Shown here piece after piece: positions 1-26,243 of a stretch of 64,000 nt of DNA. Below the pieces are notes generated by a model. That model made no database searches, had not been told where the DNA came from, and saw only the letters and a list, made by a program, of their open reading frames with translations. Origin of the DNA: Polyangiaceae bacterium (GTDB lineage: Bacteria; Myxococcota_A; Polyangia; Polyangiales; Polyangiaceae). The stretch spans positions 200,466-264,465 of the forward strand of contig JADJRH010000002.1 of assembly GCA_016712345.1 (NCBI GenBank), read 5' to 3'. Within the stretch, counting starts at the first letter, position 1. Each line of letters starts with the position of its first letter. Made by a program: the position numbers and the translations under genes.

Positions 1-2231
1 GTTGCTTTTCGAGCGAATGCCTGTTCAAAAAAACGCACGAGGTCGTCTCTGACGTTGGCATCAAACCGTTCGGCGGCGAGCACCAACTTGGCATCTGGGT
101 CAATGGCGCTTCCACCCGCAAATGTGGGGCGTGAACCGGCGATCATTTCGTGCAGGGTGACAGCGGCGCTCCAGCGATCGGCGGCAAAATCCCACCCATT
201 TCTACCCTCCGATCGAAGGTAAGGATCGCGGTAGACGGCAGTGCCCACCTGCACATTGGAAATGGGTAGACGCGAAAGCGAAAAGTCAAACAGGGTAAGG
301 TGGTCGGCCTGTTTGGTGGTTGAACCTACCCCCAGGTTGGCCGGTTTGATATCGCGATGAAGCACTTGGTGCTCTTCTAAATGTTCGATCGCTTGCAGCA
401 GGTCGTCGCCGTAGCGACTGGCTTCATCGAGCGAAACAGGCCCAAATCGAGCAATTTTTTGTTGGAGTGTCAACTCGCCGGCGAGGCTGAGCAGCAGACA
501 CTTTCTACCCTTCAGGGTAGGCTGACCGTGAAGCGCCACAATGCGCGCGTGCTTGTCGCGGTCGAGGTTTGAAAGGACAATTGCCTCGTCGGCGATGCGC
601 TCGTCATGGGTAGAGTCGAGCGCGATCTTGAGCGCAAACTCGCGCTCGTCTTTTAGCCTGCGCACGCGCAACACGCGCGCAGTCGCGCCGGTTCCAAGCA
701 GTTTGACCACCTGAAAGTCGCCGAGCCGCGCGTCTTTGGTCGCGGTGAGCGGATCGACCTCTTCAGGAGTGGACGCTTCATCAGGAGCGGTCGCCGCGTC
801 GAGCAAGATCTCCAACCACTCATCCACATCATCGGCTCGATTGACCGGTGCCACATCGGTGGCAAAGGTAAACACCTCGGCGATTTTGGGCGAAACGCCG
901 TCGTCTACCGTTCGGGGATCTAAGTAACGGGATCGTTCGAGCCGGCGATCAAGTTCTTCTGCCCGTTCAGCCGGCGCGCGGCCTGTGAACACAAAATAGG
1001 CGAGCGCTCCCAAGCTGAAAAGATCAGACTGAGTGCTGCGCGAAAGCGGGTTTTCACGCAGTTCGGGCGCTTGGTAAACCGCCCAATCTTCAAGTGCGAG
1101 AGCCGACCAGTGTTGGGTAAAGTCAACCCCTCCACCCGCTCCGAGTTGAAAATTGAAAAGGCGCGTGTCGATCTCGTTTGTATCGGGATGCCTGCGAACC
1201 AGCACCGATTGAGGCGAAACGGCGCCGTGAACAATGCTCTTTCGGTGGCAGTGAGAAAGCGCGCGCCCAACTTGCTCCACCATTGTCAACCGCTCCTCAA
1301 AGGGAAGCGTTGGGTTTTGGCGCATAAACGCGTCGAGCGGAACGCCCCCGGCAAAGTTGCCGAAAATGACAGTGGGACCGAGCGGCGCATCGCTCACATA
1401 ATCTGAAAGCTGGAGAACGTGCGGATGCTCGCGAACATCCCACAAAAGAGTGCTTTCACGTTCGGCCGCGCGACGAAGCTGCATCCGCCGATCCACACTC
1501 GCTTGTTGGGGCACGAGGTACACTCGCGCGCGGGTAGAAAAATTTTTATGACGATGGGTAGCTACGCGGTCTTGATATCCCGCTCCATCCACAAGCAGCT
1601 CCCCCAATTCATAACTGCCGGCCACGGCTCGACCCTTACGAGCGCGAATGCCCAGCGCTGAAAGGGCCTGCGCCACATCGTGCATGGTAGGTCGATCGAT
1701 CTTATCATTGCGATAGTTGTCAGGTGCACCCGGAAACTTATGAAACTGGACCGCCGCGGCGAGGTCTTTGCGAGTGACCACACGGATCATCCCATCGGCT
1801 TTCAGCCGAAGGTCGAGATCCGTGGCGCTCAAAAACACCAATGCCTCCACGTACGGGCATTTGGCCGGGTAGTTCATTTTCGACAAAAGGCGCGATTTAA
1901 GCACCTTTGCCTTGTAATTGCACAAGGACAGCGGCCCATCCATGTACACCGACCGGGCTTGACCCGGCGGTGTTCTATACCACTCGTGGTGATCACCTTC
2001 ATACCTGCCGGGGCCGCTTTTGATTTCGATCAAATACAGGGCTGAATAGCCCATGACCAACAGGTCAACTTCAAGCAGTCTACCCGTGGAAGGTTCAAGC
2101 AGCTCGGTGAGCGCCCACACATGAAAAGGATCGCTGTCGGGCAGAGCGGCGTAGGCAAATTCAAGCGCCTCGCGCTCGTGCGCATAAGGCGACTCTCCAA
2201 CAACGACTTTGCGAGCATTGGAAAGCGGCAT
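1..2231 (-). CDS. NERD-domain + tandem Ser/Thr protein-kinase-like protein (PglW-like architecture); 3' end runs off the left edge
   Basis: Own minus-strand translation from ATG at 2231: MPLSNARKVVVGESPYAHEREALEFAYAALPDSDPFHVWALTELLEPSTGRLLEVDLLVMGYSALYLIEIKSGPG, a NERD-type D..E.K core. A degenerate kinase-like domain follows (..HCHRKSIVHGAVSPQSVLV..), then a canonical one (VKLLGTGATARV, FALKI, HRDIKPANLG, LFDFSLS, GTAVYRDPYL). The frame stays open to position 1, so the ORF is missing from the track. Confidence 0.8.
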   Translation of the reverse strand, partial: MPLSNARKVVVGESPYAHEREALEFAYAALPDSDPFHVWALTELLEPSTGRLLEVDLLVMGYSALYLIEIKSGPGRYEGDHHEWYRTPPGQARSVYMDGPLSLCNYKAKVLKSRLLSKMNYPAKCPYVEALVFLSATDLDLRLKADGMIRVVTRKDLAAAVQFHKFPGAPDNYRNDKIDRPTMHDVAQALSALGIRARKGRAVAGSYELGELLVDGAGYQDRVATHRHKNFSTRARVYLVPQQASVDRRMQLRRAAERESTLLWDVREHPHVLQLSDYVSDAPLGPTVIFGNFAGGVPLDAFMRQNPTLPFEERLTMVEQVGRALSHCHRKSIVHGAVSPQSVLVRRHPDTNEIDTRLFNFQLGAGGGVDFTQHWSALALEDWAVYQAPELRENPLSRSTQSDLFSLGALAYFVFTGRAPAERAEELDRRLERSRYLDPRTVDDGVSPKIAEVFTFATDVAPVNRADDVDEWLEILLDAATAPDEASTPEEVDPLTATKDARLGDFQVVKLLGTGATARVLRVRRLKDEREFALKIALDSTHDERIADEAIVLSNLDRDKHARIVALHGQPTLKGRKCLLLSLAGELTLQQKIARFGPVSLDEASRYGDDLLQAIEHLEEHQVLHRDIKPANLGVGSTTKQADHLTLFDFSLSRLPISNVQVGTAVYRDPYLRSEGRNGWDFAADRWSAAVTLHEMIAGSRPTFAGGSAIDPDAKLVLAAERFDANVRDDLVRFFEQAFARKA

Positions 2232-2232
2232 G

Positions 2233-2925
2233 TCAGGTGGTGCCTCCCCTCGCAATCCGCGCATCTTCAGGTGCGGCGTCGTCGCTCACCAGGGCGCGTC
2301 CAATGGGAGTTTGACCTTCTACCGCGGTGCGCACGTCCGGGCTCTTGGTAAGATTTAACGCCAATGCCGACAAATAGGCGAGCTGACGATGGGAAGGTGG
2401 AGTGGCAATGACTGTGACTTGTTCGGCCCACGAAAGGCCCCCGTGAGAAGCAAACGCTTCAACAAGGGAAGCCACAGCCGAAGGGCCTGCAACCACCCAA
2501 CGGTCAATGGAAGACAGCGGACCCATGGCAACCGGGGTTAGCTTCACATCCCACGCGGCTGACCACGCTTGAAAAAGGGCCGAAATGCCGGCCGTAGCAG
2601 TAGATTCTACCGACGTTTGCCACAACTCTTCAGCATCTACAGGCAAAAGGCCCGGCCATTTGGCGCCGAACGCGTCGTCCTCGGCAACGGCTTTTTGAGC
2701 AAAGGTCGACCGCGCGCCAAACGCACCCGGCCATTCTGCATCGGCGTCGCGAAGCAAAAGGTCGAGCCGGTCGGCGGTGGTGAGGTCGCCCCGAAAGCCT
2801 GCCCAACGCGCATCTGCATCGGACCCAAAGCGACGACCGGTAGGTTTGCGCGCTTCGGCCCAATACAAGCCTGCGAGCGCAGTGCGGTAGAACGAGCGAA
2901 TTTCGTGGGTGGAAGGGGCTGCCAT
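2233..2925 (-). CDS. hypothetical protein, immediately upstream of and nearly abutting the NERD-kinase gene
   Basis: ORF 2233..3012. The internal ATG at 2925 (MAAPSTHEIRSFY..) is the likely start. Its TGA stop (2233-2235) lies 1 nt from the kinase ATG (2229-2231). No family recognised. Confidence 0.5.
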   Translation of the reverse strand: MAAPSTHEIRSFYRTALAGLYWAEARKPTGRRFGSDADARWAGFRGDLTTADRLDLLLRDADAEWPGAFGARSTFAQKAVAEDDAFGAKWPGLLPVDAEELWQTSVESTATAGISALFQAWSAAWDVKLTPVAMGPLSSIDRWVVAGPSAVASLVEAFASHGGLSWAEQVTVIATPPSHRQLAYLSALALNLTKSPDVRTAVEGQTPIGRALVSDDAAPEDARIARGGTT

Positions 2926-3082
2926 GGCGCGTTCGGGGCGAAGAATACACGATTCACGGCGTCTCAAGGCGCAGAATCGTCGGGGGGCGTTGCGGGGGGC
3001 GTTGCCCCTCAAGAACGAGTGCCCGTTTGAGGCCCTCTCTCGTGTGAGAGTTCAGCCGGACCAGACCTTCAAAGATCAAGCC

Positions 3083-3517
3083 ACCTAGAGCACCAATCGG
3101 TTTGATTCCGTAACCAAATGGATAGTTCACATGTGTACACAAACAGGCAGAAGCAAGGCAAGAAGGCCAGGCCCGAAGCTGCTACCCGGTGACAGACACC
3201 CAGTTCGGATCGCGTGGAGGGGGGCCCGCGGCCGACTTGCTCGGAGTTGGGGGTTAGGGAGCGAGTGACCTGTGCGCGTTCGAGCGGTGCGGTTTGGGCC
3301 CCATGCGCCACTGTCGGCGGGGAAGGGGCCCCGTCCGCGGGCGCTTGGGAAAAACCGTCACCGCGAGATGTGCACAGGTCAGGAGCGACCCGTGCGGGGG
3401 AGGAGGCGCGAGCCTCCTCCACTGGGAAAAGACTAGAGCACCTGCCGATATTTCTCGGCTTTCTCAAGTCACTAATCTTCTGATTTTACTCACGATTCAA
3501 ACCAATTGGTGTTCTAG
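3083..3517. repeat. GC-rich non-coding segment bounded by about 27-bp imperfect inverted repeats
   Basis: 3083-3109 cctagagcaccaatcggtttgattccg versus the reverse complement of 3492-3517, cctagaacaccaattggtttgaatcg (about 23/27 match). A third partial copy, ctagagcacc, sits at 3432-3441. ORFs inside look like GC shadow frames. Confidence 0.4.
3398..3419 (-). terminator. strong stem-loop (9-bp GC stem, 4-nt loop), possible terminator of the orphan toxin/immunity transcript
   Basis: ggaggaggc-gcga-gcctcctcc, about 95 nt downstream of the immunity gene stop on the minus strand. No U-tract follows. Confidence 0.3.
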
Positions 3518-4071
3518 GGAATGGTCACTTTTTCGAACAAAGCACCTGTGCATCCGGCCTGTTCCAAGCGGTTCTTCAACTCCATAGAAACGATCATCTC
3601 AACGTAAGATCCCCACAATCTGAAACAGTGAACTGGTGGTGGAATCTGACTTGTATCTAAGACTAATTTCGTGATTGACCGGTACTGACCTGCCAGATCA
3701 GCGCGGTGATCACTGGCTGTCCATTTTGTAAATCGAGATTGATTCTCATCCACGCATCGAAGAACCCGAAGGACGTTAACTGCCATCATCTGCGCGGACT
3801 CACCTAGTACAATCGGTAGGATCTGAACGTCGTCCCCGGCGACCTCTCTAAAAATGGTCGCCAACTTAGGTGTTACAATCGGGACTCCGAAACTTGTCAG
3901 CGAAAAATCTAACCTGGCTCCCCGGTGATGTATCGGAGCTGACAATGGGGTTGTCAAATGCAAAGCAATTCCGCCCTTCAGATCAGGTTCGGCACCGTCG
4001 GAAAGAGTAACTTCGCCGATGTGCCATCGGTTCGAACTTCGCATGTCGTCGAAAACTTGAAAGTACATCAT
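3514..4071 (-). CDS. polymorphic-toxin immunity protein (Imm11/DUF1629-like)
   Basis: 185-aa ORF. Its ATG overlaps the toxin stop in an ATGA (4068-4071). The C-terminus ..FRLWGSYVEMIVSMELKNRLEQAGCTGALFEKV resembles the DUF1629/Imm11 tail. Its position directly 3' of an RHS toxin tip supports the call. Confidence 0.6.
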   Translation of the reverse strand: MMYFQVFDDMRSSNRWHIGEVTLSDGAEPDLKGGIALHLTTPLSAPIHHRGARLDFSLTSFGVPIVTPKLATIFREVAGDDVQILPIVLGESAQMMAVNVLRVLRCVDENQSRFTKWTASDHRADLAGQYRSITKLVLDTSQIPPPVHCFRLWGSYVEMIVSMELKNRLEQAGCTGALFEKVTIP

Positions 4072-5552
4072 GGTTGAGTCAGTAATTTGTTAAGATCTGA
4101 ACCAGGCGTACTTAGCTCTTTGCTCATTGCGTCGAGTTCAGATCGAAAGGCTTCCGCGTACCTATCGCCCGAAAGCCCTCGGGTTGCGCGTTCCAAACGC
4201 TGGGACACTTCGCGATGATATGCTTCCGAATGGGGCCCGCGGTGTCCTGGGACTCGCACTTTATTAATTGCGTCATCGAGAGTCATTCCGGCCTTTTCGG
4301 CCATTCTTTCGAACCGCTGCGTCCACGGACCACCGTTGGATGACGAAACACGGTTCTTGTTTGTCATGATATGGTGCACCTGTCCATCCCCACCTTTTGG
4401 CGCCGACATCCATGCGTTAATCCCCGCCAAAATGTTTCCCGCACCACCCACAACGCCGACGGTAGAAACGGCAATTGCCGGCACTCCAACTGCCGCACCT
4501 ACCCCGGTCACGGTCGCCGCCCCGCCGAAGATCTCCCCACCAAGCGACGTGGCCGTGGTGTACAAACCGCCGCCAATCATCCCAAGCGCCTTGCCGCGCT
4601 CAAAGTACACCGAACGGCGCTTTACCAAGCCTTCCGCAAGGGCCGCTTCTTCGGCCACCCCTGCACCGGGTACAATGCCCAATAGTGCCCCACTAAACCC
4701 GCCCGCGATTGTCTGAAGAACGGGATGATTATACCACGGCTCGTCTTCCGCTTCCTCGTCAGGTTCGGCGGTTATGTCTTCCGATCCCGTGCTGTCCACG
4801 TCGGTTTTCGGCTCACCTACCCCGTGTTCCGCTTCTTTCTTAGGTTTGTCTTCCGTCGGCGGCCCGGCCTTTGATCCCGGTACAGAAATCTCCACATACC
4901 CACTCGGGTCCACGGGTAGGGAAGGCTCGCGCTTAGGTTCGCCGTCAAATCCGCTTGGGTCAGTATAGGTCAGCGGATTATTGAAAACGTAACTGTAGGG
5001 GTTCCACGCCTGACTGAATGTCCAATTCTGAATGATGGGATCAGTGCTCAGAAACCTACCCAACTTGGGATCAAACATTCGCCCTTTCATGTTGACTAAA
5101 CCGATCTCCCCATCGTCTTCATGCCCCGTAAATCCAAGCGAAATCGAATCTGGAAAGCTCGCAGGTATAGGGGCGCCCCACTCGGGATTTCTCCGCCGGC
5201 CGAAGGCGTCGTAACTGCGCCGCTCGGTGACCTTCCCATCGGCGTCTGTGAGTACGTCCACCGATCCCAAATGATCCGCGTGCACATACGTTGTGCCTGG
5301 TTGATTACCTCCAAGCGTGACAATCGCGATCACGCGTTCAGGCGAGTGCACATAAAATCGCTCGGTGAGCGCGTTCGCGGCGTCTTTGACACGTTCGTAC
5401 AGGTCGGCGAAATAAAGCGTTTCGTGCGTTGCGGTTAGATCGAGAGTGAACCGCGCTTGCCTGCGCAAAACGGGCTTGCCGTGCTTTGGCTCGCCTTCCT
5501 CGGGATGGTCAGAAACCAACGCGGCACCTAACAAGGTTGCCAAGCCGCCCAA
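4068..5552 (-). CDS. orphan RHS C-terminal cassette: RHS core end + Gly-rich linker + HNH/EndoVII (AHH-type) nuclease toxin
   Basis: Contains ..THETLYFADLYER..HADHLGSVDVLTDADGKVTERRSYDAFGRRR..GFTGHEDDGEIGLVNMKGRMFDPKLGRFLSTDP..NNPLTYTDPSGF, the RHS core terminus. The tip reads ..GQVHHIMTNKN..PGHRGPHSEAYHREV, an HH..N..H..H pattern. The first in-frame start is TTG and there is no ATG. Confidence 0.8.
   Translation of the reverse strand: MGGLATLLGAALVSDHPEEGEPKHGKPVLRRQARFTLDLTATHETLYFADLYERVKDAANALTERFYVHSPERVIAIVTLGGNQPGTTYVHADHLGSVDVLTDADGKVTERRSYDAFGRRRNPEWGAPIPASFPDSISLGFTGHEDDGEIGLVNMKGRMFDPKLGRFLSTDPIIQNWTFSQAWNPYSYVFNNPLTYTDPSGFDGEPKREPSLPVDPSGYVEISVPGSKAGPPTEDKPKKEAEHGVGEPKTDVDSTGSEDITAEPDEEAEDEPWYNHPVLQTIAGGFSGALLGIVPGAGVAEEAALAEGLVKRRSVYFERGKALGMIGGGLYTTATSLGGEIFGGAATVTGVGAAVGVPAIAVSTVGVVGGAGNILAGINAWMSAPKGGDGQVHHIMTNKNRVSSSNGGPWTQRFERMAEKAGMTLDDAINKVRVPGHRGPHSEAYHREVSQRLERATRGLSGDRYAEAFRSELDAMSKELSTPGSDLNKLLTQP
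4926..5436 (-). repeat. RHS-core homology block, inverted copy of 24446-24955
   Basis: Direct comparison: aaccgcaacgcacgaaacgctttatttcgccgacctgta.. is shared, and about 94 percent identity was seen over the first 96 nt aligned by eye. Identity collapses after ..gatttgacggcgaacc.aagcg.gagcc. Confidence 0.85.
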
Positions 5553-5735
5553 AAATGCGCGTGGGTGATTTTGGTGGGTAGACGACCCGCGAAGATTGTG
5601 CCCTTTTCATGATGGGCGCCTCGTTCTGGGGGCGTTCACGCTTTGTGGCGAGCCAGTCAACCGTTTCGCGTTGCGCGAAGGCCACCCAAGGGCAATGATG
5701 GGTAGGTTGCGGGGGATCTACCCATGGTTGAGGGG

Positions 5736-7622
5736 CTACTTCGGCTCCGGCGGATCGTAGATTTTCTTTACGTCGGCACCGCCCACGAACGCGTACGAGC
5801 CGGCGCTTCCATACCCATAAGCGACAATTCCAAAGGGCTTGTCACCTGACAGGTTGTGGGCGCCTTCTTGGAGCGGGCAGCGACGGGTTTCATACTCCAC
5901 ACCGGCGAGGTTGCCGGCCGGTTGGGTAGAACATCCACCCGGGGAGGTGCCGTCAATGGAGACGTTGGTGCCCACTTCGGCAACGATGACGACCCAATTT
6001 TGGTTCCACGAGCCGGGGGTTAGAATAACATATTCTGTGCGGTATTGGTCAACCGGTGGGAAGACGGTGAGGGAAGGATCGCCGATGTACGCACCGTCGC
6101 AGTATTGATTGCTGACAAGGATCTGACCAATCATGACGGGGGTGTCGGAGGTGACAACCACGTCGCCCTGGGTCCAGGTGGTTTTGACTTCACCCGGTTG
6201 GAGGGTGAATTGGTTGAATGGGGCGGGGAGGGTAGTGGTGACGTTGGTGACTTCGGCGGCGCCGACAAACCGGAGGATGTCAGGTTCTTTAAAGCCGCCC
6301 GTGGAACGCACGGGGCTGCGGGGAATGACGTAGTTTTTACCGACCGATTCCACCGGGAAGAGTTGGTCTTCAAGGTGGTCAAGGCAGCAGGTGTTGTCGG
6401 TTGTCCAACCGGGTGGGGTGGGAATGTCCACAACGCCGCCGGGAGCACCTGTGCTTTCTACCCCGGAGAATACGGCCACCGGCGCGTTGGCCGTGACAAG
6501 GGTACCTGACAAGTCGGCAATGGTTTTTGGATCGTCTTGGAATGTGCCGTCGTCCGTTTCAAGGTTGAGCACGTCAAACGGGCCAATGGTAAGACTGATG
6601 TCGCCGCCGGCTGGTGTGGCTGCAACGGGGGGATTTCCCTTGATTCGCCAGCTGGGTTTTACTTTGACAACGGTGTTGGGGGTGGTGCCGACAATGGTGA
6701 CATACGAGCGATCGAGAATGTTGAACCCGCCGAATTTGACGGGGTGGCCGGCGGGCCAGCCGATTACGCGGTAATAGGTTCCAAGTGCGTTGGTGGGTAG
6801 AAGAAGCGACGCATCGTTGGAATACGCGTTTTCAAAAACGTTGAATTGGTAGACAACGATGGGCGCGCTTGACTTAATGCGGAATGCGCGCGAGGAGAGG
6901 CAGGTTCCAGGGGAGGCGTAGTCGTTGGGTTGGACGCCGCAGTCAAGTTCACGCGTGGGTAGAACAAGGGCGTACAAGGCCCCGGGGTTGACCTCGGCGT
7001 CGGCGACTTTTGAAAGCTGGAGGGGTTGCCCGGGAGCGGCTTCGTTGATCTCAATGGAGACAACGGCTTTGGTTTGGCCGGCGTTGGAAAGCGCGACACC
7101 CCACGGTGCACTGGCCGGATCGTTGAAGCCGTCTTGTTGGTCAAGGTCAACCGCCCAAAATTCACACCCAACGTTGGAAGGTTGACCTTCTGCCACAACA
7201 CATGCGCTGATGCAGGCGCCGTTGGAACACGTTAAGCCGAGGGCCGGATCGCAGGTTTCTACCGGGGTGGTGCCGATTGTACCTTGGTCGGTGCACTGGT
7301 AGACATCATTGCCGAGGCAGGTTTTTCCACCGGGGTAACAGTCCACACAACCGAGCTTGGGAGCGCACGCTTTGGGGCATGTTTCAGGTGTGCCCGGCGT
7401 GCCGTCGCTGTTGCATGGGATGTAGGAGCCGGCGTTGCAAATGTCGCAAACATCGGAGTTGCCTCCGATGCCGCCGTTGCCGCCGTTGTTGGATGAGGTG
7501 GACGCCCCCGCGCCGCCGCCGCCTGTGGTGTTATTTGGAGCGGCGGAACAACCGAATTGAGATGGCAAAAGCGCCAAGAATAAAAGGGAAGAAATGGGTA
7601 GTAGGGTACGGCTCGAACGCAT
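5736..7622 (-). CDS. secreted Cys-rich lipoprotein, IgGFc-binding-protein-N-terminal-like domain (tentative)
   Basis: ORF 5736..7772. The likely start is the ATG at 7622, giving MRSSRTLLPISSLLFLALLPSQFGCSAAP (lipobox). A Gly/Cys-rich EGF-like stretch follows, then ..GCEFWAVDLDQQDG.. and ..VVYQFNVFENAYSNDASLLLPTNALGTYYRVIGW... Confidence 0.55.
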   Translation of the reverse strand: MRSSRTLLPISSLLFLALLPSQFGCSAAPNNTTGGGGAGASTSSNNGGNGGIGGNSDVCDICNAGSYIPCNSDGTPGTPETCPKACAPKLGCVDCYPGGKTCLGNDVYQCTDQGTIGTTPVETCDPALGLTCSNGACISACVVAEGQPSNVGCEFWAVDLDQQDGFNDPASAPWGVALSNAGQTKAVVSIEINEAAPGQPLQLSKVADAEVNPGALYALVLPTRELDCGVQPNDYASPGTCLSSRAFRIKSSAPIVVYQFNVFENAYSNDASLLLPTNALGTYYRVIGWPAGHPVKFGGFNILDRSYVTIVGTTPNTVVKVKPSWRIKGNPPVAATPAGGDISLTIGPFDVLNLETDDGTFQDDPKTIADLSGTLVTANAPVAVFSGVESTGAPGGVVDIPTPPGWTTDNTCCLDHLEDQLFPVESVGKNYVIPRSPVRSTGGFKEPDILRFVGAAEVTNVTTTLPAPFNQFTLQPGEVKTTWTQGDVVVTSDTPVMIGQILVSNQYCDGAYIGDPSLTVFPPVDQYRTEYVILTPGSWNQNWVVIVAEVGTNVSIDGTSPGGCSTQPAGNLAGVEYETRRCPLQEGAHNLSGDKPFGIVAYGYGSAGSYAFVGGADVKKIYDPPEPK

Positions 7623-7740
7623 GAGGGTAGAGTGCCCGAGTGCGCGTGAGAAGTCAGTACGAAACGACCGACGCAGTGCGGTAACTGAGACGTCTCGCAA
7701 CGACCTGAAACGCCTCGCGACGACCTGACATGTTGTACTA

Positions 7741-7892
7741 AACACGGAGGCACGGACTACACGGAGGTTCACGGAGATTTTCTATATTTCGGGCTGCAAT
7801 GGATGTCAGAAACGTTGTTTGGAACCGCGTTCTGCGAGCCGATTGCAGCCCAACAAACAAAGAAACTCCGTGTTCCTCCGTGATTCCGTGTT
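7741..7892. repeat. palindromic intergenic element with CACGGAG iteron arrays (copy A)
   Basis: Left arm aaCACGGAGgCACGGActaCACGGAGgttCACGGAGattttctatatttcGGGCTGCAATgg. The right arm is its imperfect complement: ccgATTGCAGCCCaacaaacaaagaaaCTCCGTGttcCTCCGTGattCCGTGttg. A related copy lies at 55146-55321. Confidence 0.75.
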
Positions 7893-7961
7893 GAAATGGA
7901 CGGTTCAGTTGGAGAAACGCACCAGGTTCTTGCCGGGTGGCGTCAGTTACCCAGAAGGCCC

Positions 7962-8669
7962 TTAATTGGAAGTGGCGGCGGTTTCAGAAGGAGGAGGCGA
8001 GGATGGGGAGGTGGAAGGTGTATTCAAAGCGTCATTGGAGATTTCCCAAACGAGTTGAGTGTTGCCCTGCGCTCCGGCGAAGCGAATACCAAACCACTTG
8101 GCTTTTGTGGAAATGGTGGGGCGACCCTCGGCTGTGACGCGGGGAAAACGAATGCGAAACGCCTGTCGAAACACGTTATTGTAGGGGAAATAAGTGCGTT
8201 CAATGGCGTTTGGTTTTTTAATGAGTTGAATTTCTTCAGGCGCTGTTTCGTTGCCTGTGTCGTCGATGAGCCGAACGATCCATGCGCTGTCGGGGCGGGT
8301 CAGATCGTTGTAGCGGCGCTCGCCGCCGTAGATGGCCACGAAAAACTGGTGGCGGCGTTTGGTTTCATCGAGCGCTTTTTCAAGGAGTTTTTTGCGCTCA
8401 TCAATGGTGAGGCGGTAGTCCTGAACGTAGCGGACTGTGTACGCCCAGCGAAAATCCCACGATTCAAACGTGGCTGTCGCTGTGAGGAAGTTGTCGAGTT
8501 CGCTCAGCGAAAACAGGCGTTCGGTGCGGGTCCAATGGCGAAGCACCGATTCATAATCGGTGGCGACATATTCACGCGGGCCTTCTGCGAGCGATACCAA
8601 CTGCGGTGCGCAACCGCACGCAGCAAATGCTGACACGGCGACGGTAAGCGCGGTGGAGAGGCGAAACAC
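7962..8669 (-). CDS. hypothetical lipoprotein
   Basis: GTG start. The N-terminus FRLSTALTVAVSAFAACGC has a lipobox. The C-terminal tail is Pro/Ser-rich. Confidence 0.55.
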   Translation of the reverse strand: MFRLSTALTVAVSAFAACGCAPQLVSLAEGPREYVATDYESVLRHWTRTERLFSLSELDNFLTATATFESWDFRWAYTVRYVQDYRLTIDERKKLLEKALDETKRRHQFFVAIYGGERRYNDLTRPDSAWIVRLIDDTGNETAPEEIQLIKKPNAIERTYFPYNNVFRQAFRIRFPRVTAEGRPTISTKAKWFGIRFAGAQGNTQLVWEISNDALNTPSTSPSSPPPSETAATSN

Positions 8670-19173: not shown

Positions 19174-22014
19174 ATGAACGTGCGAACGTCGTTTCCTTTA
19201 GGCAGCAATCAACGCGCGGCGAACAAGCCACCCTTGCGGCTGACTTGGTTCGCGCCGTGGGTGTTTCTGATCATCCTTTCAATCACACAAGGCGCCTGCA
19301 CCTGCATCACAAGCGAGGCGCCGCCCCCGCGCGAAATCGTCGCATGTGTACCCCAACACGAAACGCGCGCTACCAAACTTCCAACCTCCCGCGCAAGTGA
19401 AACCGCCGCCGCCGGTAGCCTGCAAGGGACATTCTCTGTCACCCCTACCGGTGAAGCTTCTTTTGTCGTTCCTATACCCACGCCACCGGGTAGAGCCGGG
19501 ATAGAGCCACGGGTAGCCCTCGCCTATAACAGCGCCGAGGGCGACGGTGTAGCGGGTCAAGGCTTTTCGCTCTCGGGTTCATCGGCGATCACGCGTTGCC
19601 CTAAGAACATGGCCCAAGATGGGGAGATCTGCGCCGTCCGGTATGACGCCGAGGATAAACTCTGTTTGGATGGTCAACCGCTTGTACAAGTCGCCGAAGA
19701 AACCGGACAACTGGAATACCGGACCTTACCCGACACCTTTGTGAAAGTGGTAGGTCATGCGCCGATCGCAGGCGTTCCGCAATGGTTTGAAGTGTTCGCT
19801 CCGAATGGCGTGATCACCGAGTATGGTAGAAGCGCCTCAACAAGACCGCGCGGACCCAACAATTCTACCCGCGCTTGGTTAGCCGCCAAAACCCACGACG
19901 GCCGCGGCAATGCGTTGATCTACGGGTATTGTTTCGCCAATGCCGAAGAGTACACCGCTGAGTACGCATTGGATGAAATTCGGTATACCCAATTTGACGG
20001 GACACCCGCCCTTGAACCGACACGGGCCGTCAAGTTTGTGTACGCGCAACGCAAGCCCGACCAAACGAGGCTTTCTTTTTCGCATGGAATGGTCGTTCAA
20101 CGCTCTTTACAACTCAACGAGATCCAAATGGTCGGCCCCGGTGAAGAATTGGTCACATGGGTGGACCTGGAGTACACAAAGAGTGAAGCCACCGGCCGCA
20201 CCTTACTCACAAAAATGGAAGAATGCGCTGCGGATGGAGTCTGTAAACCCGTTACGCTTTTTTCATACTCCACCCATGAAAAAGGCTTTATCGATCAATC
20301 TACCGAACTCGATTCGCCCACGTCCCGCAAGGCAAGCCCAATGCTTGTGGACATGGACGGCGATGGGCTTGACGATGTGTTAATCCCTGACACGCATCCC
20401 GCCCTTTCTACCCCTGCAAACCCGATCACAGAATGGCGGCTTTTCCACAATGGCACCTTGCCCGGTGAAAGTGTCACCTTTTCAGATCTGACCATTCCTT
20501 ACGTTCAAGATGACGTGTTTGTGGCCGATCCCAGCGGTCCCGCCGACCCTACCCAACTACAGCCCGAACTTGGAACGGTGCTTGATTACAACCAAGACGG
20601 CCGAAAAGATATCCTTCTCCATGACATCTACCAACAGGGGGCAACATGGAAGATTTTGATCGCCAAACCCGCCCCTCAAGCCGGACCCAACACCCCCACG
20701 TTTGAGATGGTAGATACAGGGATCGCTCGCCCCTTTGGCATCGGCGCCCAACCTGTACCACCTGCGTTGTCTACCAAAAACGGCTCCATGCACTTGGCCG
20801 ACGTCGACGGCAATCGCGTGGCCGACTTGATCCAATGCACCGATCACAGTGACTCGCTCACCGGTGACCCTTCTAAACCTGAATGGAAGGTGCACCGATG
20901 GTTGCCCGCGCACGGGGGTATACCTCTTGGATTTGACCCGGAAGGAGAAGTGATCGAAGCGCTCGAATTATACCGATGCGACGTCGACCTGAAAACGGTT
21001 GACATCGACGGAGACGGAAAAACAAATCTTCTTGTCGTGCCGCTTGAAGTGGCAGGTGATGGATCTGAAATTCAGGGCGTAAATTACGAAGCGCTTTCCC
21101 GCAACGAAAACGGCACGTGGGAAATTCGCGAAACAAACCTAACCATTCCCGCCCCAGGTGGACGCGTTGTATTTCTCGATGTGAACGGGGATGGTCTACC
21201 CGATGCAGTAGAGTCAGGTTTTTCGAACGGCGGGCTTTATACACTCCTCAACACCGGCAACGGCTTTGCACCCTCGCAGCTCAGTTTGGATGGTGGCGGT
21301 TACGGCGGGCAGGATGCGCTTTTCCGCTTTGCAACCCCAATCGACGCCAACGGAGACGGCAGGCAAGATCTTTTGGTGCCCATGTTCGCCGATGGACTCG
21401 GCGCCAGTGGTGAACCGCCCGAGTGGGTGTTTCTCATCGCACAACCGGGCATCCAATCGACGGGCACGTTCACCATCGAACCATCGGGCATTCCCTTTAA
21501 GCCGCTTTTGGGTGAAGCGGTCACTCTCGCCGATCCTCACGGGCCGCGCATCGGCGATCTGAACGGCGATGGAGCTTCGGATGTTGCCATTTGGTTGAGT
21601 GGCAAGCTCCACATTTTCGAAAATCAAGCGCGCGATCAAGACCTGTTGATCGGTGTACACCAAGGAACCAACCCGCATGATCCTACCGATCCTGAATATG
21701 TGCCCGACGTGGCCATTTCGTATGGCCATCTGACAGACTCTTCTATCACGACCAACACCGATCCAGATGCTTTGTCCAATGAGAGCGCGCTCTACCTTTC
21801 GCAATGGGACAAGGCCAATGGGTGCACCTACCCGCGACGGTGCAGCGTTGGCGCGCGCCGCGTTGTTTCGGAGTATCAGACGTTCGACGGGGTAGATGCT
21901 GGGCGCCGGTATAGCTTGCGGTACCGCGATGGACGGATATTCGTTGCACAGGGCTTTTTTGGGGTTCGGTGCGCGGTTTCTGACCGACCTCGACACCGGA
22001 GCGATCACCGCTGA
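19174..22014 (+). CDS. RHS/Tc-toxin BC-like protein, N-terminal ORF (SpvB domain + FG-GAP/VCBS propeller); probably one gene with 21896-25774
   Basis: Signal peptide ..WVFLIILSITQGAC. The SpvB/TcB N-terminal block is GTFSVTPTGEASFVVPIPTPPGRAGIEPRVALAYNS..GQGFSLSG. Repeated D.DGDG..D motifs are DMDGDGLDDVL, DVDGNRVADLI, DIDGDGKTNLL, DVNGDGLPDAV and DANGDGRQDLL. Confidence 0.85.
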   Translation: MNVRTSFPLGSNQRAANKPPLRLTWFAPWVFLIILSITQGACTCITSEAPPPREIVACVPQHETRATKLPTSRASETAAAGSLQGTFSVTPTGEASFVVPIPTPPGRAGIEPRVALAYNSAEGDGVAGQGFSLSGSSAITRCPKNMAQDGEICAVRYDAEDKLCLDGQPLVQVAEETGQLEYRTLPDTFVKVVGHAPIAGVPQWFEVFAPNGVITEYGRSASTRPRGPNNSTRAWLAAKTHDGRGNALIYGYCFANAEEYTAEYALDEIRYTQFDGTPALEPTRAVKFVYAQRKPDQTRLSFSHGMVVQRSLQLNEIQMVGPGEELVTWVDLEYTKSEATGRTLLTKMEECAADGVCKPVTLFSYSTHEKGFIDQSTELDSPTSRKASPMLVDMDGDGLDDVLIPDTHPALSTPANPITEWRLFHNGTLPGESVTFSDLTIPYVQDDVFVADPSGPADPTQLQPELGTVLDYNQDGRKDILLHDIYQQGATWKILIAKPAPQAGPNTPTFEMVDTGIARPFGIGAQPVPPALSTKNGSMHLADVDGNRVADLIQCTDHSDSLTGDPSKPEWKVHRWLPAHGGIPLGFDPEGEVIEALELYRCDVDLKTVDIDGDGKTNLLVVPLEVAGDGSEIQGVNYEALSRNENGTWEIRETNLTIPAPGGRVVFLDVNGDGLPDAVESGFSNGGLYTLLNTGNGFAPSQLSLDGGGYGGQDALFRFATPIDANGDGRQDLLVPMFADGLGASGEPPEWVFLIAQPGIQSTGTFTIEPSGIPFKPLLGEAVTLADPHGPRIGDLNGDGASDVAIWLSGKLHIFENQARDQDLLIGVHQGTNPHDPTDPEYVPDVAISYGHLTDSSITTNTDPDALSNESALYLSQWDKANGCTYPRRCSVGARRVVSEYQTFDGVDAGRRYSLRYRDGRIFVAQGFFGVRCAVSDRPRHRSDHR

Positions 22015-25000
22015 CTTTTTTGATAACCAGTCGTTTGACGCCACGTTTCAGACCTACCCATTTGCAAAGGTCCGATCGGCCCAATGGCGATCTACACCCG
22101 GTTGGGAAGGGTTGCCCGATCCTCAAAAGGTAGAACTGTCGTTTCTAAACACGACACGCCTTGTCGTGCCCACGAACAACAGCAAAACCTATTTCACGCT
22201 CACCACAGAAAACCGTTTGCGCCGAGCGCAAGGCGAATTTGACGCTACGGCGCAAGGGTCGAGTTTGCTGGAGTACACCCGAAGCGTTGAAAATGGTGCG
22301 GCAAACGTCCCCATCTTGCGCGACACAACCGCCAAGGTCACCAACTTCGACGACGTTGGAAATGTGCTTTCTGAAACGTCCGCGACGGTAGATGTCAACC
22401 TGACAACCACCATCGAGCGTACGGTAAAAAACGACGTTGATACCTGGAATCTTGGCCAAGTCACGCAGCAAAAAGAGTGCAGCGCGGCGAATGGGTTGAC
22501 GCAGTGTCGATCCATCCAACGATCGTTTACCCCTTACGGGGAGGTTGCGGGCGAAACGGTACAGGATGAAGCCGATCCCACAACGCGGATTGAGGTCAGT
22601 TACGGGCGCGACCATCATGGAAATGTGACCTCCCTCAGCGCGAAAGATCCCAAAGGCGCCGAACGCACCTCCACGATTACGTACGATTCAACTGGGCTCT
22701 ACCCTCGCGAACATACCAACCCGGCCGGCCATGTCACACGCACCGAGTTTGATCCACGGCTTGGCGTCGTGACCCGAATCACTGACGCAAATGGGCTTGT
22801 GACTGAGCATCAGGTAGATGGTTTCGGGCGCCTGACATTGAAAAAGCGCCCCGATGGTACAAGTACAAGTTTCACCATTACTCGCACGAGAGACGGGGCA
22901 CACAACCAGAACGCCTGGCGCATTCGCGAACGGACGATCGAAACAGGAGGGCAGGACGAAGAGATCGAACGCGACGCTTTCGGTCGAGTGGTTCAACATT
23001 GGTGGTATGGTCCGACACCGGAAGGTCAAACCAACGCGCCGCGGATCACGCAACGATTCGAATATGATCGGTTGACGGGTAGAGTCGCCCGAAGGTCAAT
23101 CCCCATGCGCGAGGATGCCGCGCCCAACAAAGTCGAATGGGATGAGTTTGTCACCGACGGGTTAGGCCGCGAGGTCAAACGCACCACGGCTTTCGGCGCC
23201 ACCACGGAAACGGAGTTTGATGGACTGACCATCAAGACGACCGATCCGCTTGGAAACGTGAGCATCGCAGAAAACGACGCCTTGGGTAGAAAGATCGCCG
23301 TCACCGACGCCGCCAACGGCGTTACGGTGTACACCTACGGGCCCTTTGGAAAGTTAACCAAAGTCACCGGACCCGACGGTGCAACCACGCTCACCACATT
23401 CGATGCGATGGGTAGACCGGTTGAAACGGTAGACCCCGACAAGGGAGGCACTCAACAAACCTACAACGCCTTTGGTGAGCTGGTTTCATTGGTAGACGCC
23501 CTCGGAAATGAAACCACCTTTGAACGTGATCCGCTCGGTCGAGTGACGAAGCGCCTCGACGATTTGGGCGCTACCACCGAAATCACAACGTGGACATTTG
23601 ACACGGCCCCGAACGGAAAAGGGAAGATCCACCATGTAAAGAGTATCGATGCAGAAAAAACGTACACCTATGATAAATTGGGAAGGGTAGAAAGTGTCAG
23701 CCTGGAGGTGACGGGGAACGGGCCCGCGATAACAGGAAAGATCGGTTATGATCTCTTCGGCCGCGTCGAAACCCTGACCTACCCAACGGCAAAGAGCAGC
23801 GTACCTTTTGCAGTCGTCCAAGACTACGACGCGCACGGGTTTACCCGTAAGGTGCGCGACCGAAACATCGATCTCACCTATTGGCAGTTGACCGGGGTGG
23901 ACGACGCCGGCAGGTTTGCGCAGGAACAAATGGGCAATGGAGTTTCTACTACCCATCGAACCTATTTCGCCGCGCAGCAAAGGCTAAGAAACATCACCAC
24001 AGAAAACGCGGCCGGTTTGGTGCAAAGTTTGGAGTTTGAATGGGATGCTCGCCTAAACCTGAAAAGCCGCACCGATGATTTGCAGCCACAACACACCACC
24101 GAACGATTCAGGTACGACGCCCTTGAGCGGCTAACGTGCTCGTATTTCTCGACGCAAGAAGATGTTTCGGCGCCTTGCGATTGGAGTTACCAATACGCGC
24201 CGAACGGCAACTTGACATACAAGTCCGACGTGGGCACGCTGGAGTATAACGATCCTACCCATCCTCACGGTGCCACCGCGGCCGGAGGGGCAGCATACCA
24301 ATACGACGCCACCGGCAACCAAACGGCTCGCCCCGTGGGGGTGAAGGTTGCGTACACCGCGTTTGATCTACCCAGAACGATCACCCAACCGAGCGGAGTG
24401 ATCTCGTTTGGATATGACGGCGACCAAAAACGTGTACGCAAGACAACCGCAACGCACGAAACGCTTTATTTCGCCGACCTGTATGAACGGATGAAAGACG
24501 CCGCGAACGCGCTCACCGAGCGATTTTATGTGCGCTCGCCTGAACGCGTGATCGCGATTGTCACCCGCGGAGGCAATCAACCGGGCACAATGTATGTGCA
24601 CGCCGACCACTTGGGATCGGTGGATGTACTCACCGATGCCGATGGGAAGGTCACCGAGCGGCGCAGTTACGACGCCTTTGGCCAAAGGCGAAATCCCGAG
24701 TGGGGCGCCCCAATACCCGCGAGCTTTCCTGACTCGACATCGCTTGGTTATACCGGCCACGAAGATGATGGAGAGATCGGTTTAGTCAACATGAAAGGAC
24801 GGATGTTTGATCCCAAGTTGGGTAGGTTTTTGAGCACCGACCCGATTGTGCAGGATTGGACATTTAGCCAAGCGTGGAACCCTTACAGCTACGTTTTCAA
24901 TAATCCGTTGACCTATACCGATCCAAGCGGATTTGACGGCGAACCCAAGCGTGAGCCGGGCGTGGTGTACATGCCGGAGGCAAATATCAAGGTGCCAGTC

Positions 25001-25774
25001 CCGACGAACGGGACCGCGCCACCCAAGGAGGACAAGCCCAAAGAAGAGAAGAAACACGGCGTGGGTGAAGGCGAAAACGATGTCAACACCACCGGGTTGA
25101 TCACCCCATTGGTTGACGCGGACGAAGAAGGGGAAGACGATCAACCGTGGTATCACCATCCCATCGCGCATGGGATCATCGGATTTGGCGCGGGGCTTGG
25201 ACTTGGCTATGTCCCCTTTGCTGGAATAACGGAGGAAATTCTAGAAAAAGCGCACGTACTGAATCCAGTCTCCCCGACGTATCACTATGCCAAGTCGGCG
25301 GGCATGAGCATTGGAGGGCTGATCGCCATGCTCCAGGGCTTTAATGAAATTGCGGGAGCTGTGATGCTCGCTCCCGAAATCGGTCCAGGCGGAACCGTGG
25401 CCATTTCTAACATGGCATTGGCCCAAGTGTCAGGTGGTGCACTGAATGTATACGCCGGCACGCAAGCGATGATGTCCGGGCCGAACGGACGGCAGAGCGC
25501 TGGGCCGTCCGCCACTCGCGGTGAAACTCCGGCCGCGCGTGCGGGCCGCGAAGCTCACAAGAATTGGAATCCAGGAAACGGTTTTGAAAAGGAGTTTCGA
25601 TTGCCGAGCGGTAAACGACCGGATGCGGTAAACTTCGAAACGAAAGAGGTGTTGGAATTGAAACCAAACAACCCGGAGGCAATTCGAAAAGGCGAAGCTC
25701 AACTCCGGGAATATGTTGATGAGTTGAATAAGCATTTTGGCGGTGGATTCACCGGTCGCGTAGTTACGTATTAA
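21896..25774 (+). CDS. RHS/YD-repeat protein, C-terminal ORF: RHS shell + core + PD-(D/E)xK (Tox-REase-like) nuclease tip
   Basis: Many YD repeats are present (..YDSTGLYPREHTNPAGHVTRTEFDPRLG.., ..TYGPFGKLTKVTGPDGATT..). The RHS core ends at ..PLTYTDPSGF. The tip ..FRLPSGKRPDAVNFETKEVLELKPNN.. carries PD...ExK. This ORF sits in the +1 frame relative to 19174-22014. Confidence 0.85.
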   Translation: MLGAGIACGTAMDGYSLHRAFLGFGARFLTDLDTGAITADFFDNQSFDATFQTYPFAKVRSAQWRSTPGWEGLPDPQKVELSFLNTTRLVVPTNNSKTYFTLTTENRLRRAQGEFDATAQGSSLLEYTRSVENGAANVPILRDTTAKVTNFDDVGNVLSETSATVDVNLTTTIERTVKNDVDTWNLGQVTQQKECSAANGLTQCRSIQRSFTPYGEVAGETVQDEADPTTRIEVSYGRDHHGNVTSLSAKDPKGAERTSTITYDSTGLYPREHTNPAGHVTRTEFDPRLGVVTRITDANGLVTEHQVDGFGRLTLKKRPDGTSTSFTITRTRDGAHNQNAWRIRERTIETGGQDEEIERDAFGRVVQHWWYGPTPEGQTNAPRITQRFEYDRLTGRVARRSIPMREDAAPNKVEWDEFVTDGLGREVKRTTAFGATTETEFDGLTIKTTDPLGNVSIAENDALGRKIAVTDAANGVTVYTYGPFGKLTKVTGPDGATTLTTFDAMGRPVETVDPDKGGTQQTYNAFGELVSLVDALGNETTFERDPLGRVTKRLDDLGATTEITTWTFDTAPNGKGKIHHVKSIDAEKTYTYDKLGRVESVSLEVTGNGPAITGKIGYDLFGRVETLTYPTAKSSVPFAVVQDYDAHGFTRKVRDRNIDLTYWQLTGVDDAGRFAQEQMGNGVSTTHRTYFAAQQRLRNITTENAAGLVQSLEFEWDARLNLKSRTDDLQPQHTTERFRYDALERLTCSYFSTQEDVSAPCDWSYQYAPNGNLTYKSDVGTLEYNDPTHPHGATAAGGAAYQYDATGNQTARPVGVKVAYTAFDLPRTITQPSGVISFGYDGDQKRVRKTTATHETLYFADLYERMKDAANALTERFYVRSPERVIAIVTRGGNQPGTMYVHADHLGSVDVLTDADGKVTERRSYDAFGQRRNPEWGAPIPASFPDSTSLGYTGHEDDGEIGLVNMKGRMFDPKLGRFLSTDPIVQDWTFSQAWNPYSYVFNNPLTYTDPSGFDGEPKREPGVVYMPEANIKVPVPTNGTAPPKEDKPKEEKKHGVGEGENDVNTTGLITPLVDADEEGEDDQPWYHHPIAHGIIGFGAGLGLGYVPFAGITEEILEKAHVLNPVSPTYHYAKSAGMSIGGLIAMLQGFNEIAGAVMLAPEIGPGGTVAISNMALAQVSGGALNVYAGTQAMMSGPNGRQSAGPSATRGETPAARAGREAHKNWNPGNGFEKEFRLPSGKRPDAVNFETKEVLELKPNNPEAIRKGEAQLREYVDELNKHFGGGFTGRVVTY
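24446..24955 (+). repeat. RHS-core homology block, inverted copy of 4926-5436
   Basis: See 4926-5436. Protein level: THETLYFADLYERMKDAANALTERFYV..FDGEPKREP versus THETLYFADLYERVKDAANALTERFYV..FDGEPKREP. Confidence 0.85.
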
Positions 25775-25784
25775 AGGAGGCCCC

Positions 25785-26243
25785 GTGAAATCGGATGCTG
25801 TCAGCATGGCCCTTTCAGATCTTGTGGTCGCCGCTGGGTTCGTGAGGAAGCGAGACACATGGTATCGCGCGACCGAGGATCTCATTCAAGTGCTGAATGT
25901 TCAGAAGTCCCGGTATGGTCAACAATACTATTTGAATCTTGGGATATGGCTAAAGCCCTTGGGAGAGGTGCAGTTTCCGAAAGAGAATGTATGCCATGTG
26001 CGCATTAGGGCCCGGCAACTCGACGAGGCGACCCGCGCCGAGTTTGAAAAATGTCTGGACTTGGACAGTGGTATCACCCCAGAAGAACGCGAAAACCAGA
26101 TCCGCCGATTGGTTGACGACGTTGTCCTGCCGTTTTTCGCAAGATGCGAGTCCATTGCGCAAATCCGACAAGTGTACAACTCGGGTGTGCTGAAACGAGC
26201 CGCCGTTTTGAGTACCGCACAAGAGTTTTTGACGGGTCAATGA
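25785..26243 (+). CDS. cognate immunity protein candidate (DUF4304-like)
   Basis: GTG start 10 nt after the RHS stop, preceded by AAGGAGG (25775-25781). The pattern ..GFVRKRDTWYRATEDLIQVLNVQKSRYGQQYYLNLGIW.. resembles DUF4304. Confidence 0.6.
   Translation: MKSDAVSMALSDLVVAAGFVRKRDTWYRATEDLIQVLNVQKSRYGQQYYLNLGIWLKPLGEVQFPKENVCHVRIRARQLDEATRAEFEKCLDLDSGITPEERENQIRRLVDDVVLPFFARCESIAQIRQVYNSGVLKRAAVLSTAQEFLTGQ

Follow-up and report, generated by a model that had tools for sequence, protein, structure and literature searches.

Orphan toxin cassettes are thought to be a reservoir from which polymorphic toxins diversify. To our knowledge, nearly all experimental knowledge of them comes from enterobacterial loci linked to type VI secretion (T6SS) or contact-dependent inhibition (CDI), in which the orphans stand in tandem behind the main gene. 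In Salmonella Typhimurium LT2, with its rhs-main and rhs-orphan (Koskiniemi et al. 2014, PMC3967940; Poole et al. 2011, PMC3150448), orphan rhs fragments devoid of initiation and export signals are re-armed through recombination with the main rhs gene (PMC3967940). Among the nuclease tips carried by such toxins, Tox-AHH has the signature [AG]HH, N, H, H, Y and has been catalogued with Imm11 immunity proteins, RHS repeats and TcdB/TcaC delivery, the pairing of Imm11 with AHH being listed for delta-proteobacteria (Zhang et al. 2012, PMC3482391). The present analysis concerns a stretch of 64,000 nucleotides of a Polyangiaceae bacterium (assembly GCA_016712345.1, contig JADJRH010000002.1, positions 200,466 to 264,465), referred to below as the window and numbered from its first letter. 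On its minus strand lies a 494-residue open reading frame (ORF) that ends in an AHH-type nuclease tip and is followed by an Imm11-type immunity gene. This is a genuine orphan polymorphic-toxin cassette, an element of a known and ordinary kind, and it had been identified correctly in an earlier, sequence-only reading of the window. With modest confidence, we take it to be an archived C-terminal toxin–immunity cassette of an RHS polymorphic toxin of the TcB/TcC type, a main gene of which is present in the same window.

The likeness to the Salmonella LT2 orphan lies in the general make-up. Both consist of the end of an Rhs core joined to a C-terminal toxin fragment, both carry a cognate immunity gene on their 3′ side and have no start or export signals of their own, and both contain a segment homologous to a full-length rhs gene through which the tip could be re-armed. 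The differences are nevertheless several. The main gene is here a fused TcB/TcC (SpvB/FG-GAP) gene and not a T6SS-linked Rhs gene of the PAAR type; the orphan lies 19 kb away from it on the opposite strand; the homologous arms are 89% identical; and the 5′ end of the orphan is fused to the remnant of an ORF for a twin-arginine translocation (Tat) signal. Because the partner is inverted and 19 kb away, re-arming would need a reversible inversion instead of the deletion or duplication of the Salmonella type.

Homologues of the ORF, whether retrieved by protein or by genome searches, align only from residue 40 onward. In complete genomes of Sorangium and Polyangium the frame is open upstream of the same stub (2100–2500 residues), and full-length relatives carry 1660–2000 residues upstream of the homology start. 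Since homology to these relatives of 2100–2500 residues always begins at residue 40, the ORF is, by sequence comparison, an N-terminally truncated orphan of a larger RHS gene. It retains the last ~455 residues of what is a protein of ~2240 residues in full-length relatives, and what it has lost includes the signal peptide, the SpvB/propeller region and over 80% of the RHS cage. What remains of the shell is recognized by the NCBIfam model TIGR03696 (Rhs_assc_core) at residues 114–201 (E=1.5e-19), gives a weak match by fold to Rhs and teneurin shells, and includes the end-of-core motif PLTYTDPSGF at 4947–4976, NPLTYTDPSGF at residues 192–202 being of the PxxxxDPxGL type by which orphan cassettes are recognized and including DPxGF, the motif of autoproteolytic cleavage. 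The counterpart in Sorangium cellulosum So0157-2 (positions 4730–11455 of locus L001) is a full-length BC-RHS toxin of 2241 residues, with signal peptide and SpvB/FG-GAP/RHS body, whereas the window copy is without ~1750 N-terminal residues; the two share the stub, the pre-toxin hairpin and the AHH tip, with 53% identity overall and 68% over the tip. The Imm11 homologue of So0157-2 (L001 11452–12033; 47% identity, E=1e-59) overlaps its toxin gene by GTGA, the same 4-nt stop/start overlap as in the window, and ATGA-type overlaps of this length with the immunity gene are the rule in this family.

The tip and its partner can both be assigned to families. Pfam PF14412 (AHH) matches residues 385–479 (E=3.3e-17; 62.9 bits against a gathering cutoff of 22.3; profile positions 12–110 of 111), and PF07791 (Imm11/DUF1629) matches the 185-residue protein (E=1.6e-10; 41.1 bits against a gathering cutoff of 22.1; profile positions 63–192 of 194). 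These are the two profile searches that the sequence-only reading had proposed as a check on its assignments, and both matches are above the gathering cutoff. HH, N, GH, PH and AY are invariant across eight aligned homologous tips, and the catalytic motif residues are intact in the window. On these matches the tip belongs to the AHH family of nucleases and its partner to the Imm11 family of immunity proteins. In common with the catalogued Tox-AHH/Imm11 pairs, the cassette has the HH...N...H...H...Y motif and an immunity gene immediately 3′, and the position of the Imm11 gene next to an AHH toxin gene agrees with the AHH, HNH and SHH neighbourhoods by which Imm11 is recognized. It departs from them in the first motif residue, known as A or G, which is V here and E, M, I, C or D in relatives, and in the N-terminal third of the Imm11 profile, which the window protein leaves unmatched. 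Imm11 homologues are also found directly 3′ of the same AHH tip in L011, L012 and L015 (38, 38 and 26% identity, respectively). The combination of AHH tip and adjacent Imm11-like gene recurs in loci of Hyphomicrobiaceae, Myxococcota and Planctomycetota, tip identity and immunity identity dropping in parallel. A sequence search of the PDB gave no match for either the tip or the immunity protein.

Along the 494-codon frame, which is fully open, the modules follow one another in the order Tat-signal remnant, RHS stub, linker, pre-toxin hairpin and AHH tip. The minus-strand junction with the immunity gene reads ...caaccATGAtg..., the toxin stop (4070–4068) and the immunity ATG (4071–4069) overlapping by 4 nt, and upstream the toxin frame is closed by an in-frame TGA at 5609–5607. 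Much of this had been read correctly from the letters: the stop/start overlap at 4068–4071, a toxin frame that opens after a TGA with a TTG at 5552 as its first start, an RHS core of ~170 residues (RHS homology covers residues 40–210) and the tip peptides VHHIMTNKN and PGHRGPHSEAYH, both of which are present in the translation. In the tip and the immunity gene the G+C content of third codon positions is ~0.50, against 0.63–0.65 in host genes, and by this measure the two are of foreign composition. At the hairpin 3399–3420 the overall G+C content climbs from ~0.48 to the host level of ~0.6, and this hairpin may be a terminator or the cassette boundary. Between 3000 and 6000 two terminator-like sites were found, which is below the 3.6 expected from shuffled sequences. 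The coordinates of all features are collected in the table.

Coordinates and defining properties of the orphan cassette, the main RHS gene and their neighbours (window numbering)
Feature	Position	Strand	Remarks
Orphan toxin ORF	4068..5552	(-)	494 aa, first start codon TTG at 5552 (ORF listing)
Tat signal-peptide ORF remnant, original frame	5509..5610	(-)	ATG 5610-5608; TGA 5511-5509
Frameshift site in twin-arginine motif (cgcgc tract)	5556..5561	(-)	both frames compared with P0121
Non-RHS 5′ part of ORF, aa 1-39	5437..5552	(-)	24% identity to main gene just upstream of 5436; P0121 match
RHS core stub, aa 40-210	4924..5436	(-)	left arm of 513-bp inverted repeat
Acidic Pro-rich linker, aa 203-274	4731..4946	(-)	predicted disordered, pLDDT <50
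Conserved pre-toxin domain, aa 275-383	4404..4730	(-)	Gly/Ala/Val-rich with GxxxG repeats
AHH-family HNH/EndoVII nuclease tip, aa 384-494	4071..4403	(-)	stop codon 4068-4070; Pfam PF14412
Imm11-family immunity gene	3514..4071	(-)	185 aa, ATG start, overlaps toxin stop
GC-rich hairpin, perfect 9 bp (GGAGGAGGC-ucgc-GCCUCCUCC)	3399..3420	(-)	~95 nt past immunity stop; no U-tract
Main gene, fused TcB/TcC (BC)-type RHS toxin	19174..25774	(+)	Pfam; colinear with So0157-2 protein
Right arm of 513-bp inverted repeat, aa 851-1021 of 1292-aa ORF	24445..24957	(+)	inside main gene
Main-toxin immunity gene, DUF4304	25785..26243	(+)	PF14137 E=5.8e-22; AGGAGG Shine-Dalgarno sequence
NERD and two Ser/Thr kinase domain matches	3-2264	(-)	runs off left window edge, open-ended
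IgGFc-binding-domain lipoprotein	5736-7772	(-)	neighbour of cassette

The main gene, the single full-length RHS gene of the window, comprises two ORFs, 19174–22014 and 21896–25774, because the frame shifts by +1 at a run of six T (T6; 21955–21960). Together, in two reading frames, the ORFs are colinear with the 2241-residue So0157-2 protein. T5 in place of T6 would restore ...QGFLGFGA..., the sequence found in So0157-2 and in P0132, a close relative discussed below. As judged by this colinearity it is a single fused TcB/TcC-type toxin gene, which a frameshift interrupts in this assembly at any rate; the split may be a genuine inactivation, the outcome of phase-variable slippage or an assembly error. 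Its product would contain a lipoprotein-like signal, SpvB, FG-GAP, TcdB_mid_N, RHS repeats, a diverged pre-toxin region and a Tox-REase-9 tip. It has the signal peptide, SpvB, FG-GAP propeller, RHS repeats and C-terminal toxin that together define the BC-type architecture, and of this architecture the orphan retains only the final shell segment. SpvB, FG-GAP, TcdB_mid_N and RHS repeats are shared with the TcB–TcC cocoon of the Tc toxins of Photorhabdus and Yersinia and with Rhs cages, as is the DPxGF motif ahead of the cargo. Unlike in Tc toxins, however, no TcA-like gene was seen within the window, and whereas the Tc cargo is an ADP-ribosyltransferase directed against eukaryotes, the cargo here is a predicted nuclease of the anti-bacterial type accompanied by an immunity gene.

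The orphan and the main gene are connected by a 513-bp inverted repeat, detected by blastn between 4924–5436 and 24445–24957 at 89.3% identity, with 19,008 bp between the arms; in a repeat search of positions 1–27000 this pair was the sole repeat of at least 40 nt. Its upstream edge is sharp, DNA identity being 24% beyond 5436, and its downstream edge is gradual, the similarity fading after DPSGFDGEPKREP. The longest identical runs between the arms measure 41, 40 and 38 bp. The arms are codon-colinear and differ by 42 synonymous and 9 nonsynonymous codons (dN 0.026, dS 0.55, dN/dS 0.046), which argues that nearly all of their divergence arose under purifying selection, likely in functional genes of different lineages. 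In alignments judged by eye, amino-acid changes peculiar to the orphan are about as many as those peculiar to the main gene (~4 to 5), and the orphan stub has not visibly decayed.

Since the arms are inverted, a RecA-dependent crossover between them would invert 5437–24444. Through such an inversion the delivery body would run on in frame into the AHH tip, followed by Imm11, and the REase-9 tip and the DUF4304 gene would be left parked as a new orphan. It is tempting to speculate that a reversible, homology-driven inversion of 19 kb by RecA toggles REase-9/DUF4304 against AHH/Imm11, and that in addition the pre-toxin hairpin is an undescribed membrane-translocation domain of myxobacterial RHS toxins. 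If this were true, pairs of warhead and antidote would alternate on the delivery body and neither pair would be lost; we nevertheless consider the combined proposal improbable. The locus does not resemble a site-specific switch of the shufflon or invertase kind: no recombinase domain was found in the ~40 window ORFs scanned with Pfam, some small ORFs being unscanned, and the arms are 513 bp of coding homology, unlike the short recombination sites of invertase-type switches.

Several points weigh against the interpretation as an archived cassette. As the arms are only 89% identical and the window contains an intact mutL, homeologous recombination between them should be rare, and no inverted isoform of 5437–24444 was observed. 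The orphan does not have the classical placement, directly 3′ of the main gene and in the same orientation; 10 or more housekeeping-type genes lie between the two. Because the main gene is itself frameshifted, neither tip may currently be deliverable. No sigma-70-like promoter was found in 3000–6000, in a scan that is ill-suited to Myxococcota. Finally, the HH catalytic segment is poorly modelled by AlphaFold2, and fold searches gave no HNH match.

The 5′ end of the orphan has a history of its own. The first 39 residues contain the h-region of a Tat signal, then DHPEEGEP...ARF, then four junction codons (TLDL), the whole toxin frame reading RAFLGGLATLLGAALVSDHPEEGEP...ARF-TLDL-TATHE, where the last segment belongs to RHS. 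In the neighbouring frame an ATG at 5610 has GAGG 8 nt upstream; this frame reads MKRAQSSRVVYPPKSPTR and then continues out of frame to a TGA. The first 18 residues of the ATG frame and RAFLGGLATLLGAALVSDHPEEGEP of the toxin frame jointly match P0121 (E=1.6e-11, 77% identity). P0121 is MBK8255729.1, a 51-residue 'twin-arginine translocation signal domain-containing protein' of a Polyangiaceae metagenome-assembled genome (MAG), with the sequence MTKAQSTRGTYPPSRPTRRAFLGGLATLVGAALVSDHPEEGEPPPKAEARF. It has an unbroken PTRRAFLGG and stops right after ...ARF, whereas in the window the motif is split, PTR and (P)RAFLGG belonging to different frames, and no intact twin-arginine motif lies in frame with a start codon. 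Compared with P0121, the cgcgc tract has, we infer, lost 2 or 5 nt, and this loss puts the ATG and the toxin into different frames. The TGA after which the toxin frame begins is itself part of the ATGA at ATG 5610. The earlier claim that the toxin lacks its own ATG accordingly needs qualification: the toxin frame does start at a TTG, but the ATG of the Tat remnant, together with its GAGG, exists in the neighbouring frame. On the evidence of P0121, the RHS stub was attached to the 5′ part of a Tat-signal ORF, of which the relative likewise has only a remnant, and the two parts no longer share a frame. Judged from the spacing of accession numbers, P0121 does not neighbour P0001 or P0132, two orphan-like proteins of the same MAG, and a scan of metagenomes with the Tat-signal N-terminus gave no confirmed locus. 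Programmed frameshifting or transcriptional slippage at the T5 run, by which both frames would be joined, was also considered and set aside as unlikely; it would need a shift of +1 or -2, and the run is short.

The frameshifts might instead be errors of the assembly, the real gene running from ATG 5610 through Tat signal peptide, RHS stub and hairpin to the AHH tip and encoding a short, Tat-exported toxin. Both lie in simple tracts (cgcgc/T5 at 5551–5561; T6 at 21955–21960) of the sort in which long-read sequencing typically errs, the closest relative is a MAG from wastewater, the upstream ORF begins at an ATG that is preceded by GAGG at -8, and correction would bring the Tat motif, as TRRAFLGG, into the frame of the stub. 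However, the Tat-signal ORF of the related MAG is just 51 residues long and ends after ...ARF, so that it is remnant-like there too; some 30 other checked genes of the window are intact, the only two frameshifts both falling in toxin genes; and restoring the frame takes 2 or 5 nt, more than the single nucleotide of a simple homopolymer error. A shell fragment of 170 residues, moreover, cannot form the RHS cage that performs autoproteolysis and encapsulation in Tc and Rhs structures. We regard this explanation as very unlikely.

Alternatively, the cassette may be no more than a decaying remnant. It would then be the fossil of a past tip replacement or rearrangement, its toxin a pseudogene never re-armed, with at most Imm11 being kept as orphan immunity against the AHH toxins of neighbours. 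Such a remnant would be in keeping with the displacement of the sole ATG and SD-like (Shine–Dalgarno-like) motif from the toxin frame, with the frameshift in the main gene, and with arms that are 11% diverged in the presence of mutL. The closest syntenic contigs, L021–L023, are without a cassette after the IgGFc-binding gene, which marks the region as variable and dispensable, and orphan immunity genes are common (PMC10539506). On the other hand, the frame is open over 494 codons with its catalytic motif residues intact, and the stub has a dN/dS of 0.046 with about as many orphan-specific as main-specific changes. Yet the open frame, the dN/dS and the intact motif fit a recent death and an archive alike. 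We think a remnant possible but rather unlikely, and retain the archived cassette as our preferred interpretation.

Neither TTG 5552 nor the immunity ATG is preceded by an SD-like motif. For the TTG this absence had been noted in the sequence-only reading and stands, but the silence of the toxin that was concluded from it does not follow, because most genes of the window are without such a motif, an SD-like core being present at only ~6/30 other gene starts. Lacking SpvB, β-propeller and RHS cage, the toxin could presumably not be packaged or delivered, and, as it now stands, translation beginning at the TTG or further inside the frame would be low at most. Imm11 probably continues to be made and would guard against kin armed with this AHH tip.

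Internal starts may also hint at a module resembling toxin–antitoxin pairs, in which the nuclease would be translated in the producer itself, from ATG 4409 or TTG 5552, and restrained by Imm11. The in-frame ATG at 4409 (Met 382) precedes the region matched by Pfam AHH by three codons and itself follows a G-rich stretch; the toxin is coupled to the immunity gene through ATGA; and a start without SD-like motif is compatible with the habit of most window genes. Internal promoters and toxic internal products have, in addition, been shown in Salmonella rhs ORFs (Starsta et al. 2020, PMC7043789). This view is weakened by the negative outcome of the sigma-70-type scan of 3000–6000 mentioned above, and by the fact that Met 382 is inherited with the pre-toxin module, the same WMS being found in P0001 and P0132 ahead of other tips, so that its position may be incidental. 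A module of this sort seems to us quite unlikely.

The region between the RHS core and the tip, which the sequence-only reading described as a Gly-rich hydrophobic linker, is indeed Gly-rich in part, but it is a conserved domain, predicted to form a helical hairpin, and not a mere linker. It is preceded by a linker proper, composed of 18% E, 15% P and 11% D, which is 43% identical to the main gene as against 85–90% to P0132. The domain itself contains 22% Gly, 17% Ala and 12% Val, with eight GxxxG motifs, and is modelled by AlphaFold2 as two helices of ~32 residues forming a hairpin plus two shorter helices (pLDDT 87–96). No Pfam family was found over the Gly-rich region, nor any match to PT-TG among 16 family members at E<=5. 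The domain is nonetheless conserved in 16–44 Polyangiaceae RHS proteins with differing toxin tips, among them AHH, LHH, WHH, HNH, Ntox8, colicin-DNase and others, which are preceded by a spacer of the GSGS type. An exhaustive HMMER search with the hairpin gave 128 clusters at E<=1e-3 among 1.84 billion representatives, and in the long proteins matched the domain always lies 100–250 residues from the C-terminus; a word-indexed search with the hairpin alone gave just 9 short fragments.

Close relatives show where the modules are exchanged. P0132 (MBK8255404.1, IPK82_22435), a protein of 1099 residues from the same MAG as P0121, is 91% identical to the orphan over residues 40–383 and 96% identical in the pre-toxin domain, and then switches at ...NAWMS to a tip of the LHH/HNH type. 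P0001, of 466 residues, combines an acidic linker of the main type (85%) with a hairpin of the orphan type (70%) and ends in an LHH tip; the boundary of the tip after ...NAWMS is set by these two proteins, which bear other tips past the same sequence. Three module breakpoints are apparent from these alignments, one after the cleavage motif, one before the hairpin and one before the tip. P0132 also jumps from ...GFLGFGA straight to QRFEYDRL, as if ~370 internal residues of the main gene (21896–25774) had been deleted, and P0122, of 627 residues, is another truncated RHS copy. RHS genes of this lineage thus seem to be frequently rearranged or truncated.

As to the function of the hairpin, the glycine-zipper region of the Agrobacterium DNase Tde1 has been proposed to permeabilise the target cytoplasmic membrane for entry (Ali et al. 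2023, PMC10240207). The likeness consists in consecutive GxxxG motifs within a hydrophobic segment attached to a DNase effector. The motif of Tde1, however, is N-terminal and short and has no sequence homology to the present domain, which is a four-helix module of 110 residues placed between the RHS cleavage site and the toxin. By analogy, the pre-toxin hairpin probably helps the nuclease to cross the cytoplasmic membrane of the target cell.

The flanks of the cassette are ordinary chromosomal genes, including a 259-residue ORF without family match. Elsewhere the window encodes a Glu/Leu dehydrogenase, an M50 protease, a PGA_cap protein, a sigma-70 factor, MutL and a ClpB-like protein. Since the window contains neither a tRNA nor any Rfam match, there is no signature of a tRNA-linked island. 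Region 1–2285 was examined as a possible degraded gene, an idea that was rejected; an intact NERD and Ser/Thr-kinase gene extends past the window there. A search with the IgGFc-binding neighbour retrieved 43 loci, of which the metagenome contigs L022 and L023 share the gene order of the window on that gene's far side. Because both contigs lose synteny exactly at the IgGFc stop codon and have no cassette, the region downstream of this gene is, on their comparison with the window, variable. The genes past the IgGFc stop in L022 and L023 differ from those of the window and from each other, and a past inversion is neither supported nor refuted by them.

The heptamer GGGTAGA is strongly over-represented in the window, with 47 copies in 64 kb against 2.1 expected (6 in the richest shuffle). 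It occurs on both strands (28+/19-), in genes and in spacers, at positions that include 201, 264, 5576, 5717, 17398, 23077 ... 52793, with a weak flank preference (Y before, A after), and resembles an over-represented word of the uptake or Chi-like kind. The sequence-only reading had noticed that neither cassette gene contains it, and indeed no copy lies between 2086 and 5575; it had also placed the related GGGTAGG at 4914, where it is found, but counted CCTACCC once, while the toxin ORF holds three copies (4498, 4816, 5055). The idea that the missing heptamer marks foreign DNA was considered and rejected as not significant, since a gap of 3.5 kb has P ~0.08 and there is a longer one of 9.8 kb at 7625–17398.

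Some other genes of the window deserve a brief mention. A protein-arginine deiminase of the eukaryotic type (PAD, PF03068, E=5e-77) with a lipoprotein-like signal is encoded at 10729–12582 (+), and this gene and the next ORF, which has HEAT repeats, are absent from the otherwise syntenic contig L023. An 847-residue protein encoded at 30701–33244 (+) has Major Vault Protein shoulder (PF11978, E=5.5e-30) and Vault_3 domains. Its gene is preceded, with a 19-nt overlap, by that of a putative DUF2201/VWA-like metallopeptidase (29292–30719, +), which in turn is overlapped by 4 nt by a 351-residue ORF (28240–29295, +); the whole of 28240–33244 (+) looks, from its domains, like a bacterial vault-protein-like operon. 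At 36861–40826 (-) lies a gene for a 1321-residue Ser/Thr kinase fused to a STAND-like AAA_16 ATPase, which is typical of myxobacteria and unrelated to the cassette.

What the locus adds to known orphan cassettes is an inverted and distant partner, a frameshifted fusion to a Tat signal, a frameshifted main gene and a hairpin domain that has no annotation; it involves no new principle, and the general picture of polymorphic toxins is unchanged by it. The gain lies in constructs and PCR junctions that can be put to the test. The hairpin domain, which has no Pfam family and is common to many warheads, is a candidate entry device. The same orphan logic as in enterobacteria would here operate in a TcB/TcC-type system of a myxobacterium of the Polyangiaceae, and with the archive copy held in inverted orientation 19 kb away, a swap of tips would be a non-destructive inversion.

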